A program made the position numbers and the translations under genes. A DNA stretch of 64,000 nt from Thermodesulfobacteriota bacterium (GTDB taxonomy: Bacteria; Desulfobacterota; Desulfarculia; JACQYL01): NCBI GenBank assembly GCA_963675595.2, contig CAXXLZ010000002.1, positions 128,001-192,000 on the forward strand. The letters run 5' to 3'. Shown one piece after another: positions 15,169 to 34,566 of the stretch; the stretch's first letter is position 1; every line of letters begins with the position of its first letter. The notes below the pieces were generated by a model. The model was not told the DNA's origin and made no database searches. It was given only the letters and a program-made list of their open reading frames with translations.

Positions 15169-16257
15169 GGGACGTTGTTGACTAACGTGACAAATTCAAT
15201 CTGCAGTCATTTATTCCTTTCAAATATCCTTGAGATGGCTGAAGTCGTTACGCCTAATTGCCGTGCCGTTTCGGCCATGGTAAGGCCGAGACTTTCGACC
15301 AGTTCTTTGGCCAATTGCGCCCTTAGCCCGGGAAGCACACCCCGGCGACTTCCCCCTCTTAACGCTTCAACGGAAACTCCGCCTTTTTCGCACGCAGCAA
15401 GAATGATCTTTCCCGCCTCGATTACCCGCTCATTGATTGATATCTGTGCACTGATATTCTTATCCGCTTCAGCAAGGATACGCTCTACAAATTCATCCTG
15501 TCCTAATATACGTTCATCGCAAAGAACCTTTTCTTTGCTTTTTCGCGAAGTCAAAACCTGCGACCAACCTCCCAAGGTCCGAATCAGCCCTCCCCCTCCA
15601 AGGTCTTCCCTATGGCCTTCATCTATTCCATCCTCCAAATATCGGCGGTAAACCTTCCGGGCCGTGGGAATATCCTGAGCGAACCAGGAAAGTACATAAT
15701 CGGTATCCTGCCATTTCGCTTTCCTCTTGCCCATGATCGCGCTGTGACCGCACCAGGGATAGCGATCAAGCTCGGACATATTTTTTACTATTTTGGCCCT
15801 TAATGGGTTCAAGTGTATGTATCTAACCAACTCCTGAAAATAAACATCTTCATCGCAGATGATGGATTTGTATCTGTTTTGAAAAACATGTCCATGTCTC
15901 TTATGACGGATATTATAGGTTACGGCATATCCGGTAAGAAGCCTTCTCATGAACCGAGATAGTCCTACAAGGCCGCTCTTGACGAGGATATGGATGTGAT
16001 TCGACATCAGAACCCAGGCATAAACACTGGTTCTCGTTTCCTCGGCAAGGTCCCCAAGGCGCGAAACCATATTCTCCCGATCATATTGATCGGTTACGAT
16101 ATCTCTCTTTTCCATCCCCCGGACAATAACATGATGCAGGGTACCCGGAGCATCTAATCTGGCCTGCCTGGGCATGACATCTTACCGCCTTGGTCTCATC
16201 TATTTCACCAACTCCAAAGCGACTACCTTGTTTTGTCACGTTAGTCAACAACGTCCC
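15169..16257. mobile_element. Y1-transposase element bounded by perfect 26-bp inverted repeats
   Basis: GGGACGTTGTTGACTAACGTGACAAA at 15169-15194 and its exact reverse complement at 16232-16257; visibly more AT-rich than its flanks. Confidence 0.8.
15207..16175 (-). CDS. REP-associated tyrosine transposase (RAYT)-like HUH Y1 transposase with C-terminal HTH
   Basis: MPRQAR...HHVIVRG, LMSNHIHIL (HUH), RYIHLNPLRA, C-terminal HTH. Confidence 0.9.
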   Translation of the reverse strand: MPRQARLDAPGTLHHVIVRGMEKRDIVTDQYDRENMVSRLGDLAEETRTSVYAWVLMSNHIHILVKSGLVGLSRFMRRLLTGYAVTYNIRHKRHGHVFQNRYKSIICDEDVYFQELVRYIHLNPLRAKIVKNMSELDRYPWCGHSAIMGKRKAKWQDTDYVLSWFAQDIPTARKVYRRYLEDGIDEGHREDLGGGGLIRTLGGWSQVLTSRKSKEKVLCDERILGQDEFVERILAEADKNISAQISINERVIEAGKIILAACEKGGVSVEALRGGSRRGVLPGLRAQLAKELVESLGLTMAETARQLGVTTSAISRIFERNK

Positions 16258-17016: not shown

Positions 17017-17424
17017 GAGATGTCTCTCTCCCTCTATTCGGCCTCCGACGAGTCGGCGGGGAAATACGTGAGTGCGCGATAATCAAGCACTCCCCACAGT
17101 TTCCGTCGCGACTGATCATGTGTTGCAGAAGCCCCGTGAGCCGGTTCTTTGTTCCACGTCGACGTTCGGTGTTACAGCAGCCGGCGCATCCGAGGCAAAC
17201 GGGTTTCTTGTCGGCGTCTTATCGCCGATTCCATTCAATCAATTGTGTCGGGAGGCATCGTGTTTGTTGGAGGCCGGAAAACACGTTCGGCACGGCCCCG
17301 TTCTCCGTCTCGATCACAGACGGAGACAACAGGGCCGACACCCTAAACTCGAAATGAGGTTGAGGGGAGCACGCACGGCTTCCCTCAACCTTTATTGAAC
17401 GACGATTACTTCTTGATCGGGTGA

Positions 17425-17778
17425 TTAGTAGCGGGGTCGACCGCCACCGCCGCCGCCTCGTCCGCCTCCGCCGCCTCCGCCGCCTCTCGGACCGCGTCCG
17501 CCGCCACCCCCGCCGTGCCCGCCTCGCGGGGCGTCGGTACGGGGCCGCGCTTCGTTCACGTTGAGAGCCCTACCCTTGACATCCTTACCGTTCAGGCCTT
17601 CGATCGCGGACCGGGCTTCGGCGTCGGAGGGCATTTCCACGAATCCGAATCCTTTAGACTGGCCGGTGTATTTGTCCTTAATGATGGTGGCTGATTCGAC
17701 CTGTCCGAATGACTCGAATGCGTTCCGCAAATCTTCTTCGGTGGCTTGGTACGACAAATTCCCTACGTAAATGTTCAT
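17425..17778 (-). CDS. RRM RNA-binding protein with Gly-rich tail
   Basis: IYVGNL (RNP2), KGFGFVEM (RNP1); hairpin at about 17357-17392 downstream. Confidence 0.95.
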   Translation of the reverse strand: MNIYVGNLSYQATEEDLRNAFESFGQVESATIIKDKYTGQSKGFGFVEMPSDAEARSAIEGLNGKDVKGRALNVNEARPRTDAPRGGHGGGGGGRGPRGGGGGGGGRGGGGGGRPRY

Positions 17779-18151
17779 TCCGATGCCCTTTGTCCTTTTG
17801 TAATGAGTTCCGCCCTGCTACCTAACGGGTCGTCCACGCGGTCCCGATTTGGAACCGGCGGGATCCTTCTTTCCCTCGAGCCCCAAAAACGCACTGTTTC
17901 CTTCCCGAGGTTCCCGGCCCCGTTGACGCCGGGAACAGACCAAGCCGCCATCTCGAGGCGAACTTACACGATCCATAGAGGCGAGTATAAGGCTTTTGGT
18001 CACACTTGGCAATTTCTCAGAGCAAGAATTCCGTTATTTAAACGAAGAAAAGATTCTTCCCCGAACAAGCAACGGAGTCTCGAAAAATCGTGGTGAATGC
18101 CGATTCGCCCAAGCCGTGCGACACTGCGCCGCAGAGCGAACCGCTCTCTGT

Positions 18152-18607
18152 TCAGACTCGCCGGTCCCGATAGCGATCCATTTCGGCGGCCAGGGCCCTC
18201 GCCAAGTCCTCGAAACCCTGATCCTCGGCTGTTTTCACGGCTTCCTCCATCGTCGCTTTCCAGTCTTCCCCGTGGTAGCCGGAAGAGAGGGCATGTGCGG
18301 TTTCGTGGATCAACAACACCAGGAGCAACGTTCCCCGGACCCCTTCGAGAACGGCAATCGCGGCTTCTTCCCGGTTTCACGAAGCGGCGGCGCCGTACAT
18401 CCCTTCGAACCTCCGGTAGGTCCAATGATCGAGATCGGTTCGGTCCGGGAAGAATACGTCTCGAACGGTCCGGACGGCGGCCTCGAAAGCGTCCCATCCC
18501 GCCGATTCCTCCGGCACGGGGGAGTTCCCTCGGGACGACGCCGAACAAATGCTCGGTTTCGGAGTATCATCAACCCGTCCGGTTCGCCAATCCTTTGCCG
18601 CCTTCAT
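18152..18607 (-). CDS. SprT-like HEXXH zinc metalloprotease with in-frame TGA at 18377-18379 (selenocysteine candidate or nonsense pseudogene)
   Basis: Manual translation past the TGA stays open for 74 codons: ...YGAAAS*NREEAAIAV...LLIHETAHALSSGYHGEDW...RRV; ATG overlaps the upstream stop (ATGA). Confidence 0.6.
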
Positions 18608-19116
18608 TTCAACTCCCTGACCTCCAGAGGGGTTCCGTCATGAGGATCAAAGTTGTAGTCCGGGGGATAGGTGCGGCCGGTTCGGGGATTCACCTTGATG
18701 GTCCCGCCCTCGTGATCCAGGACCACCTGTTCGACTTCTCTCGCAAGGTGTTCCCCGATTTCGGTCTCGCCGGATATCTCGTCGTAATATACATAGTTGA
18801 TTCGCGCCGAATAGGAATCATAGGCATCGAAAAGAGATACGATGTATCCCTCCACTTTGAGGACGGCACCGTCCACCTTCTCCACCGTCAGCTTCTGGAA
18901 CCCCGCCGCGGCAACCTTTTTGACGACTTTCATGGGAATTTGGACGTCTTTTCCACGATAACTGCATCGTAGAACCGGTTGCAGGTTAATGAATTCCCGA
19001 ACCACGATTTTGATTCCATCGTCGGTGATGAAATAACCTCCCATGGCGCCGTAGGCCTGTGTGGCCAAGCTCAGGAAACAAACAAAGAAAAAGGATCGTT
19101 TCATCAGTCCATTCAT
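18604..19116 (-). CDS. Secreted hypothetical protein
   Basis: Signal peptide (...TQAYGA); 170-aa ORF. Confidence 0.65.
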   Translation of the reverse strand: MNGLMKRSFFFVCFLSLATQAYGAMGGYFITDDGIKIVVREFINLQPVLRCSYRGKDVQIPMKVVKKVAAAGFQKLTVEKVDGAVLKVEGYIVSLFDAYDSYSARINYVYYDEISGETEIGEHLAREVEQVVLDHEGGTIKVNPRTGRTYPPDYNFDPHDGTPLEVRELK

Positions 19117-19308
19117 GATCGGGCTCCAGTCTCTCGGCCGTCCGGGGGTTCAAATACCGCAACACGCCAACCCCGGCCACGCCCTCTTTCACATAGATCG
19201 TTCCTTCCGGGCTGCTCCGCTCAAATCTTCAATCCGGTGATCCACGTAAACTCTTCTCGACGGCGTTTCGTCATTAAATAGAAAAAGCCCCCAAAAGGAG
19301 GTTGCGCC

Positions 19309-19857: not shown

Positions 19858-20679
19858 TCAGGCGAGCAAATCCACCAACGATCCCGTGGACCTGCCTCCG
19901 GCTCCGACGACGCCTCTTTGCGCAACAAGACTCTTACCATACAAGGTTGATCGGTCGGCGGCGGAGGTCCCGCCGCCCGCACGGACGTCCTGCGTTTCCC
20001 CCGTGCCTTGTTGCATGAGCTCCTTTCGAGCTTTGACTTCCTTACGGCTCGCTTTGGCGGCCACCGCACGGTCTTGTGAGGACGGATCCGCGGGAGCCAG
20101 CGCCGCCCTCCGCACTTGTTGCATCTTCGCGATGGTGGCTTCGGGATCGTCCTTCACCTCCGAAGCATCGATACCCACCTCTCCGGCCACCGCGTACATC
20201 TTTCCGTCCGGCCCCCGTTCGAGTTCGAAGTGAGCGCCGGAAGTGACGTATTGTCCGCCCGCCGCTATGTGAGCCTGCTCGTGTGCTCGAACCTTACGGT
20301 CGTCTGCAGCCAGTTCCTTTACTTCCGCCCGCTCCTCCTCCGAAAGCTCGTCCTTCGCGAGCCCTCGAGCGTTTTCACCGGCCTCTTCAACGTCCTCTCC
20401 GTGTTTGCCGTCCGGTGAAGCGTCTTCAGCATTCGATTCCCTGGAACCGGACCCGGAGGACCGCGGACGTTCACCCTCGGCCGACGCTTCCTGCGAGAGC
20501 GTCACCCGATCCTCCGCCACCTCCGTTTCGGCGGGCGCCTTCGCGGGAGAGCTCTCACCCGAATTCTTCAAACGGGCATCAATGGAACGTTCATCGGAAC
20601 CACGGTTGCGAACTTCGGCCGTATCGGGCAACTTTTCCGAGCTGACCAGACTTTGAAGTTGGACGGATTCCATCATCAC
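19858..20679 (-). CDS. SprA-related family protein
   Basis: [33 protein letters not shown]. Confidence 0.8.
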
Positions 20680-33678: not shown

Positions 33679-34566
33679 CTACACGTTCAGACGCGCTCCG
33701 TCCAGGTACATCAGGCTTCGGCCGACCCGTCGGATGTTGTGAAATCCTTCCTTCAACATCACGACCCGTTCCAAGCCGATGCCCAGTCCGGCCCAGGAAT
33801 CCGCGATGTTCCAATTGGCGTCCAGGGGATGCGGTCCCACGGCGCCCGACGCGATTTCCACCCCGTCCGCCAGGATGTCGGTGGTATCCCCGTAGACTTC
33901 GGATTTCTCCGTCTCCAGGCGGTAGGGGAGCCCGATGACTTCCATGATTCCGTGTGCCAACACCTCGAGTCGGGCCTGCGAATCCCCCTCCATGCCCATT
34001 TCCACCAAGTTCAGCATGGTGAACTCGGAAAGATGCCTGGAGCCTTTGGATTCCTTACGGAAACAACTGCCGATCTCGAACATGCGGACGGGAAACGACC
34101 AAGTCCTGGTCACATGCCCCATCAAATGATAAAGATTGGGAGCCAACATGGGACGAAGGCAGGTTTTTCGATCGATCCAATACACTTGTTCAAGCAAAGG
34201 GTGTCCCTCCCCGATGCCCATTTTCGTGAGCATTCCCCGGGCGAGCGTGGTGGGAGTACTCACTTCGACGAAGCCTTTCCCGGTGAGCCAAGCGACCAGA
34301 TTCCACTCCAGCACTCGGAGGGAGGGTCTGAGTTTTTCCTGCTGAAGCCGCGTCAATCTTTCCCGCGTGCTCTCGACCAACTCTCGCTCCAGCGTGCGAA
34401 AAGCCGCGTCCCGGTCTTTTTCCGAGGCATATTCGGATCGGGTGGCGGTTTCTTCTATATCCAACTCAATGAGTCGCTGCTTCTGCGTGGCGGTAAATTC
34501 CAAAGTCGATTCTTCTCCATGTGGGACGGTGGAAAGACATTGGCTGCCGTGGGTGGTCCGTTCCAT
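33679..34566 (-). CDS. pylSc: Pyrrolysine--tRNA ligase catalytic subunit PylSc (alternative TTG start at 34503)
   Basis: FTATQKQRLIEL, CLRPMLAPNLY, FEIGSCFRKES, EFTMLNLVEMG, YGDTTD, WAGLGIGLER, RSLMYLDG. Confidence 0.93.
   Translation of the reverse strand: MERTTHGSQCLSTVPHGEESTLEFTATQKQRLIELDIEETATRSEYASEKDRDAAFRTLERELVESTRERLTRLQQEKLRPSLRVLEWNLVAWLTGKGFVEVSTPTTLARGMLTKMGIGEGHPLLEQVYWIDRKTCLRPMLAPNLYHLMGHVTRTWSFPVRMFEIGSCFRKESKGSRHLSEFTMLNLVEMGMEGDSQARLEVLAHGIMEVIGLPYRLETEKSEVYGDTTDILADGVEIASGAVGPHPLDANWNIADSWAGLGIGLERVVMLKEGFHNIRRVGRSLMYLDGARLNV

Follow-up and report, generated by a model that had tools for sequence, protein, structure and literature searches.

We analyzed a 64,000-nucleotide (nt) stretch of the genome of a Thermodesulfobacteriota bacterium (contig CAXXLZ010000002.1, positions 128,001 to 192,000; the whole stretch is hereafter termed the window), in which a minus-strand reading frame of 151 codons is interrupted by a single internal TGA at codon 77, 24 codons ahead of a HETAH-x6-H motif. 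As judged from a structure model, this frame appears to encode a minimal zincin domain of the SprT type, 121-151 residues in length and bearing HExxH plus a third His. We slightly favor the interpretation that the codon-77 UGA is decoded as selenocysteine (Sec), to which we assign a probability of roughly 0.48, and we present the gene as a candidate only. The strongest argument for Sec is that two of the four premature stops found at the DNA level in genes of this family fall on one and the same column, together with a host genome rich in Sec-encoding genes.

An intact reading frame across a genuine TGA

The original prediction, made from the letters of the window, held that the frame stays open for 74 codons past the TGA, contains HETAH-x6-H and yields a product of 151 amino acids (aa). 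The translation agrees, and in the read-through product the candidate Sec is residue 77 and H112-G-E-D-W116 lies downstream of HETAH (Table 1). The coordinates given in the prediction implied the strand without naming it; the gene lies on the minus strand. Under translation table 11, the locus comprises an open reading frame (ORF) of 76 codons that ends at the in-frame TGA and a 58-aa ORF with a TTG start, which begins MLLVLLIHETAH.

Public sequencing runs were compared with the window over positions 17900-19200; none of those listed for this stretch is an RNA run. Run X1, which is probably the source run, covers this whole stretch with zero differences and keeps the TGA. Run X3, from another sample of the same study (depth 14.6), spans positions 18228-18688, again with zero differences, and reproduces the TGA. 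As a second run from a second sample shows the same codon, the TGA is real DNA and not an assembly error. An origin of the TGA in faulty sequencing or assembly is thus a negligible prospect: contigs from two runs and two samples of one study all carry it, and no support for an error was found.

Table 1. Features of the candidate gene and of the elements discussed with it (positions are those of the window unless a contig is named).
Feature	Position	Strand	Basis or remark
Read-through frame, 151 codons, predicted SprT-like minimal zincin domain	18155..18607	-	Translation, homologues, AF2 model
In-frame TGA, codon 77: candidate Sec codon or nonsense-mutated Cys codon	18377..18379	-	
5' piece, 76-codon ORF as seen by the gene caller	18380..18607	-	ORF list
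3' piece, 74 codons past the TGA, holding the catalytic-type motif	18155..18376	-	
HETAH, residues 101-105	18293-18307	-	Translation
Third His, H112	18272-18274	-	Translation
Terminal stop codon of the read-through frame, TGA	18152-18154	-	Translation
GTG at codon 31, possible true start	18515..18517	-	Read from sequence; purine-rich GAGGGA a few bases upstream
Originally proposed hairpin: 6-bp lower stem, internal loop, 2-3 bp top, GAUU loop	18346..18373	-	
Irregular hairpin with GAA(G) loop 30 nt after the UGA	18328..18361	-	Formally meets the bSECIS constraints
G-rich-loop hairpin	18332..18351	-	Weakened in the window by one mismatch and one wobble pair
Upstream 170-aa ORF with hydrophobic N-terminus	18604..19116	-	Stop overlaps the ATG at 18607 (ATGA)
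PylSc (PylS C-terminal-domain gene)	33682-34401	-	297.6 bits against a cut-off of 178
tRNA-Pyl, anticodon CTA	G000:C2:125847-125918, 2 kb before the window		ARAGORN

The codon-77 column is the conserved Cys of an SprT-like family

An exhaustive search of 1.84 billion representative proteins found 105 proteins at E<=1e-3, six of them at <=1e-10. Two of the 105, with lengths of 76 and 32 aa, are pieces of the window gene itself; both come from its 4,730,252-nt contig, which is the sole origin of the 76-aa piece in the database. The remaining homologues are mostly 100-230 aa in length, and most of them align in one stretch with residues ~41-149, that is, across the TGA; tblastn of the homologues against the window likewise yielded single alignments that run through the TGA. 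In the 103 aligned homologues, the codon-77 column is occupied by Cys in 93, Ala in five, Ser in two, and Val, His and a gap in one each. The statement in the original prediction that SprT-like proteins often carry a G-x-C strand at this place is thereby borne out by an alignment, and the column is mostly Cys, not the non-Cys residue that had been named beforehand as evidence against Sec. The motif columns are nearly invariant (H101 in 102, E102 in 102, H105 in 103, H112 in 100 and W116 in 95 of the 103), and the candidate retains both HExxH, as HETAH, and the third zinc ligand. At four of the 22 columns conserved at 80% or above, the window protein departs from the consensus (W56R, G75A, I103T and R119T); this count, close to the family's 90th percentile, marks the protein as divergent but not as an outlier. 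Two other approaches found little: word-index protein searches returned zero matches at near lengths and at 30-55 aa, and a single-protein search gave two weak matches in 40 genomes, of which the one inspected had no HExxH.

At E<=0.01, the Pfam family SprT-like (PF10263) picked up 30 of the 36 members aligned (best 8.8e-9), and the window protein scored 16.5 bits against it, below the gathering cut-off of 25.6. An AlphaFold2 (AF2) model built from the alignment had a mean predicted local distance difference test score (pLDDT) of 84. It was confident over residues ~38-148, with block means of 94-97 over residues 41-140, and treated residues 1-37 as disordered (pLDDT about 50-60). The model comprises a helix (38-52), three strands (63-67, 75-78 and 83-87), the HExxH helix (92-107) and two further helices. 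With this model, no Foldseek match reached E<=1e-3; the top-ranking structures were proabylysin (4jiu, 3.5e-3), SPRTN (6mdx_A, 4.7e-3) and selecase (4qhi_A, 7e-3), each with a probability of 1.00, followed by IrrE and Wss1. By the model and these matches, the protein would be a minimal zincin of the SprT type. Residue 77 falls on the single conserved Cys of the family, and in the model it sits on the strand 75-78, in a hairpin right before the active-site helix. Its side chain would lie near the zinc site, where it may contact the metal or be sensitive to redox state.

The host genome carries the complete Sec machinery

The genome (6.79 Mb in 3 contigs) encodes a tRNA-Sec (77 bits; called SeC(tca) by ARAGORN), as well as selA (621 bits), selB (404 bits) and selD (386 bits), all over the curated cut-offs. 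The full Sec machinery, for which the original prediction had asked, is thus in place. The selD gene itself carries an in-frame TGA, and a single in-frame TGA was found in three of 14 molybdopterin-oxidoreductase matches and in five of 10 FlpD/MvhD matches. At least nine other genes of known selenoprotein families in this genome therefore contain an in-frame TGA. A tRNA-Sec was also found in all five host genomes of Cys-type homologues that were checked.

The original prediction added that Sec together with PylSc would make this a 22-amino-acid organism. This holds for the genome, but it does not depend on the candidate gene: the remark stands without it because at least nine other genes with an in-frame TGA in known selenoprotein families, tRNA-Pyl (pyrrolysine tRNA) and PylSc are present.

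A second in-frame TGA on the same column

We searched a profile of the family in 400 + 400 + 260 other genomes, and metagenome and species collections with a 9-row alignment. Family loci were found in one of 400 other genomes from the phylum to which the window belongs and, around a Planctomycetaceae host, in five of 400 other genomes of its phylum and 12 of 260 of its family. The species-representative collection yielded seven family loci, and the metagenomes 38 loci, of which 16 are true members and the other 22 are short matches (21 covering residues 72-106). The codon-77 column was placed by motif search in 31 distinct DNA loci: it is Cys in 20, Leu in three, Ile and Ala in two each, Val, Thr and Tyr in one each, and TGA in one.

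The locus with TGA, L058, lies on a 2.3-kb metagenome contig and is otherwise an intact gene of 192 codons, whose product is 41% identical to the window protein. Of the four premature stops that turned up in genes of the family when these were read as DNA, two lie on the codon-77 column, namely those of the window and of L058. The chance that one nonsense mutation, placed at random in the gene, would fall on codon 77 is 1.0-2.7%.

Plasmids and phages gave no tblastn match to the family, a single 14-residue match in viral contigs was not used, and a scan of metagenome contigs for close relatives found none. Two other leads were rejected. The one TGA counted in locus L125 is the normal stop of that gene. 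A lost C-terminal domain past the terminal TGA of the window gene was dropped, because the homology there is too weak and the ~93% relative described below has the same stop.

Two minor observations arose from the survey. The protein call P0101 (134 aa), which lies well within the bounds of a 143,466-nt contig, begins MLLIHE, and its cluster mate P0109 is a full Cys-type protein of 195 aa; P0101 may be another interrupted copy of the family. The loci L072-L084, L086-L092 and L094, mostly from human-gut metagenomes, share only the LIHEIAHA stretch (51% over 35 residues) and differ from the family in their C-terminal part. They probably represent a separate family of zincins caught by the search pattern.

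Observations that weigh against Sec

Several observations weigh against the decoding of the UGA as Sec, and in sum they say that both UGA forms are very young, that each has a Cys sister, and that neither has a convincing selenocysteine insertion sequence (SECIS) element. They concern the age of the TGA, the hairpins downstream of it and the variability of the column, which are taken in turn.

The sole close relative seen was found in run X4, which bears another organism code and has contigs ~93% identical to the window at a depth of 2. Its codon 77 is TGC, Cys (T>G on the plus strand at 18377), with the terminal stop unchanged. Since this sole relative has TGC, the UGA is recent; it was not kept between close relatives, and a young UGA fits a nonsense allele. 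A sense codon in close relatives had been set out in advance as an argument for a recent nonsense mutation. To the letter, this is what was found, in the one relative available. The list of differences is complete for codons 54-116. From the window to the relative, T63A, R66 (synonymous), Y71C, A75G, S76L and U77C occur in codons 63-77, and A83V, A85F and V86I in codons 83-86, while all four changes in codons 87-116 plus 148 (V90, L95, I100 and D148) are synonymous. At column 75, a conserved one, and at the Cys column the relative has the usual residue of the family and the window a rare one; at column 83 both have rare residues, and at column 86 both have common ones.

For the SECIS, published constraints on the bacterial element (bSECIS) are a loop of 3-9 nt whose two initial positions contain G, an upper stem of 4-16 bp, a distance of 16-37 nt after the UGA and a minimum free energy of <= -7.5 kcal/mol (PMC13188914, Fig. 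2 legend). We re-implemented these constraints in code of our own, as distinct from bSECISearch. The nine bona fide Sec sites of the genome (in selD, molybdopterin-oxidoreductase and FlpD/MvhD genes) served as positives, and the sequences behind randomly drawn Cys codons of its long ORFs served as controls (500 for the constraint test and 600 for a measure of perfect stems). Measures based on energy alone were dropped, as they did not separate the real SECIS elements of this genome from the controls.

The hairpin of the original prediction, at nt 7-34 after the U of the UGA, does exist and has its GAUU loop 17 nt past the UGA as claimed, but it is weak, at -4.2 to -5.4 kcal/mol, and unlike the elements typical of this genome, and it is absent from the minimum-energy fold of longer stretches. 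Folding past the UGA was no better than in shuffled sequences (z = -0.73 over 73 nt and +1.89 over 45 nt), and a comparison of positions 17300-19200 with Rfam yielded nothing at E<=1. The irregular hairpin with the GAA(G) loop reaches -9.4 kcal/mol with an upper stem of 4 bp, two of which are G.U pairs; its upper stem-loop alone comes to +0.8 kcal/mol. By way of this hairpin the candidate passes the constraints, though marginally. Seven of the nine positives pass as well, but the candidate's pass means little because 37% of the 500 controls pass too. Seven of the nine positives have a perfect stem of 7-9 bp with a 3-5 nt loop that starts GG or GU, located 18-23 nt after the UGA, and they rank in the top 0.5-4.3% of the 600 controls on the perfect-stem measure, on which the candidate is only in the top 32%. 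The two other positives, both FlpD copies, are also poor on this measure (17% and 53%). The base after the UGA is A in both the candidate and L058 and C or G in all nine positives. L058 itself has no SECIS-like hairpin, failing the constraints at -0.4 kcal/mol.

The relative and the window also differ in how this region may fold. Five base differences lie 20-30 nt past the UGA, all of them at paired positions of the originally proposed hairpin, a structure that costs +4.3 kcal/mol in the relative. Since a different hairpin, equally strong (-4.8 kcal/mol), forms in the relative, there is no net gain of a hairpin in the window. Moreover, in the relative the G-rich-loop hairpin is perfectly paired over its 8-bp stem and has a GGGG loop, 33 nt past the codon, and it is in the top 1.7% of the 600 controls, so that the stronger hairpin belongs to the Cys allele and not to the UGA allele. 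A comparable hairpin was found in only one of the 31 family loci, and the relative's hairpin is therefore not a by-product of the protein sequence. It could be a product of chance, or else a SECIS that was there beforehand or is left over; SECIS-like remnants downstream of Cys codons have been described for Sec/Cys conversions (PMC1794560).

One of the FlpD/MvhD-type genes of the genome, G000:C1:1168510 (+), has a Sec site supported by homology and no SECIS in the range of 16-37 nt. Its best hairpin has a long stem and an 8-nt loop at about 38-40 nt past the UGA. This gene has either an atypical SECIS or another doubtful site.

The Cys at this column is not indispensable, being replaced in at least 10% of homologues, and residue 77 is not part of a CxxU/UxxC-type motif. 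Ala, Ser, Val or His takes the place of Cys in nine of the 103 proteins, Leu, Ile, Val or Ala does so in eight of the 31 DNA loci (Thr or Tyr in two more, where the register is doubtful), and IrrE carries Tyr there. No further TGA on this column was found in the 400 + 400 + 260 other genomes searched. The sister of L058, L057 (~94% identical, with its gene starting from base 468), has TGT at the Cys column and is broken: a TGA stands in place of the conserved Trp, codon 133 is TAG, and beyond codon ~136 the match to L058 is lost; the family thus decays in the lineage of L058.

Sec decoding and the alternatives

The reading that we favor slightly is that SelB with Sec-tRNA(Sec) would read the codon-77 UGA as Sec, probably inefficiently, and that the decoding would be aided by a modest hairpin from among those lying 17-33 nt past the UGA. 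The UGA form would then be a young Cys-to-Sec conversion. We infer both the Sec reading and the choice of the hairpin, if any, that would act as the SECIS. Taken together, the Sec insertion that was originally proposed is plausible but not demonstrated: the Cys column, the full machinery, one family that spans the TGA and a second homologue with TGA speak for it, and the TGC of the close relative and the weak, atypical SECIS that was proposed speak against it. With somewhat less than even odds, and hence tentatively, we suggest that the gene belongs to the first Sec-containing family of the zinc-metallopeptidase type (SprT-like, minimal zincin). In it, Sec would have taken the place of the conserved Cys on two or more occasions, all of them very recent, and its SECIS would be non-canonical or minimal.

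The explanation that competes most closely, and to which we give a probability only a little short of one half, is a young nonsense allele. Here a single C-to-A change would have turned TGC into TGA, translation would end at codon 77, and the catalytic half would not be made; the gene would be a fresh pseudogene in a sporadic accessory family of high turnover, and the position of the stop on the Cys column would be coincidental. The TGC of the ~93% relative, the weak and atypical SECIS, the UGA-A context that differs from that of the nine bona fide sites, the lack of a redox motif and the dispensability of the Cys in part of the family all agree with this explanation. So do the patchy distribution of the family (1/400, 5/400 and 12/260 other genomes, as above) and its broken or degenerate copies, namely L057 and L118, the latter having lost the second His and the N-terminal motif. 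In line with this, 331 clusters went through a filter for conserved TGA/Cys pairs in a screen of the Sargasso Sea, and 25 families plus 28 single candidates were kept in the end (PMC1088965). What a nonsense allele explains poorly is the position of the stop, which has a chance of 1.0-2.7%, and its independent recurrence in L058, for which we estimate roughly 6% given three other stops. The rest of the gene is also intact: the four changes downstream (codons 87-116 and 148) are all synonymous, and the non-synonymous differences cluster in codons 71-86 instead of being spread as in neutral decay.

The odds of Sec against a nonsense allele are near even by our estimate, ranging from about 35% to about 65% depending on the prior and on how heavily the relative's hairpin is made to count. 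The priors for novel selenoproteins and for pseudogenes of the TGA type are estimates and were not computed.

A leaky stop is an improbable third explanation. A near-cognate tRNA (Trp or Cys) would read through the UGA without SelB and give a low level of the full-length, potentially harmful protease. UGA is the leakiest of the bacterial stop codons, the downstream half is intact and there is no strong SECIS, all of which would suit such read-through; yet nothing points to it specifically, UGA-A is not known to be a notably weak context for termination, and the occurrence of the stop on the Cys column twice is left unexplained.

Relation to known systems

The candidate resembles rare selenoprotein families that selenoprotein-rich Deltaproteobacteria gained through Cys-to-Sec conversion (PMC1794560; similar candidates in PMC12013277) in that it has a single UGA at a conserved Cys, widespread Cys homologues, a close Cys form beside the UGA form, a host with selA/B/C/D and numerous selenoproteins, and at least one UGA homologue elsewhere. 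It differs from them in lacking a thiol-redox motif, in having a weak SECIS unlike those of its own genome and in the very young age of its UGA. In one survey, 15 of 17 families with Sec/Cys conversions were thiol-redox homologues (PMC1794560).

Compared with the SprT-like, SPRTN and Wss1 proteins and the minigluzincins (4jiu, 4qhi and 6mdx), the candidate shares, in its model, the HExxH helix placed after a small beta-sheet, but it falls below the Pfam cut-off, has the third ligand in an HExxH-x6-H spacing and is a stand-alone domain of the 120-200 aa class. Many homologues carry a further helical part at the C-terminus, which the window's gene lacks. To our knowledge, none of these families is known as a selenoprotein. 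Like an ordinary nonsense pseudogene, the candidate has just one premature stop, a close relative with a sense codon and broken copies in its family; it differs in that the stop falls on the one conserved Cys in two independent lineages and in that no other defect is present.

A literature search for selenoproteins together with SprT, metalloprotease or metallopeptidase found nothing relevant. In the main-text portions of two reviews, deep-Sep and BSepDB that this comparison covers (the 111-family table of BSepDB lies outside it), no selenoprotein family of peptidases, SprT proteins or zinc proteases is named, and the selenoprotein table of one review includes a family of trypsin-like serine proteases. 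In the field, such genes are judged by whether there is a Sec/Cys pair, whether homologues with Cys and one with UGA exist, and whether a SECIS-like structure is present (PMC1088965; PMC12013277). By these usual criteria the gene would count as a candidate selenoprotein and not as an established one, and published practice is to list such cases as candidates (PMC12013277).

If the UGA is indeed read as Sec, a zinc enzyme of the protease type would join the bacterial selenoproteome, and a very young Cys/Sec pair, with alleles about 7% apart, would open the birth of a selenoprotein and of its SECIS to study. The more far-reaching reading tentatively suggested above, with a non-canonical SECIS, would also point to a role of Sec in metal contact or as a redox switch, outside the classical thiol oxidoreductases, and a class of SECIS that current models miss. 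A weak SECIS that works would matter for the prediction of selenoproteins, because 12.6% of the catalogued bacterial selenoproteins are without a canonical element (PMC13326102). If, on the other hand, the gene is a nonsense allele, it would serve as a warning that, in a Sec-rich genome, finding a stop at a Cys conserved to 90%, even twice, does not suffice for calling a selenoprotein.

Gene start and neighborhood

The prediction had the gene coupled to the upstream ORF through ATGA. The overlap with the stop of that ORF is real, but coupling is doubtful. Over codons 1-40 (window 18488-18607), seven of the eight codons that differ from the ~93% relative are changed non-synonymously, and the homologues begin near residue 38-41, that is, 3-10 residues ahead of the conserved helix. 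Codons 1-40 are thus probably not part of the conserved protein. The true start may instead be the GTG at codon 31, as its sequence context suggests, in which case the ATGA overlap may not reflect coupling.

The upstream 170-aa ORF had no Pfam family at E<=0.001, and neither an ORF like it nor any other shared neighbor was seen beside the homologues (nine loci compared by eye). On the other side of the candidate gene, the mostly intergenic stretch 17900-18197 of the window differs from the relative at 12 of 298 bases (4%), as opposed to 7-11% in the neighboring coding sequences; it may be the conserved leader of the gene for a glycine-rich RNA recognition motif (RRM) protein (17425-17778, minus strand). 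A second metalloprotease-like gene lies about 750 bp beyond the 170-aa ORF, at 19858-20679 on the minus strand, and encodes a 273-aa SprA-related protein (PF12118, E 1.5e-31) with a HEQAH motif. At a distance of 2 kb from the candidate, positions 15207-16175 of the minus strand encode an IS200-like Y1 transposase domain (PF01797, E 1.8e-11) followed by a C-terminal helix-turn-helix.

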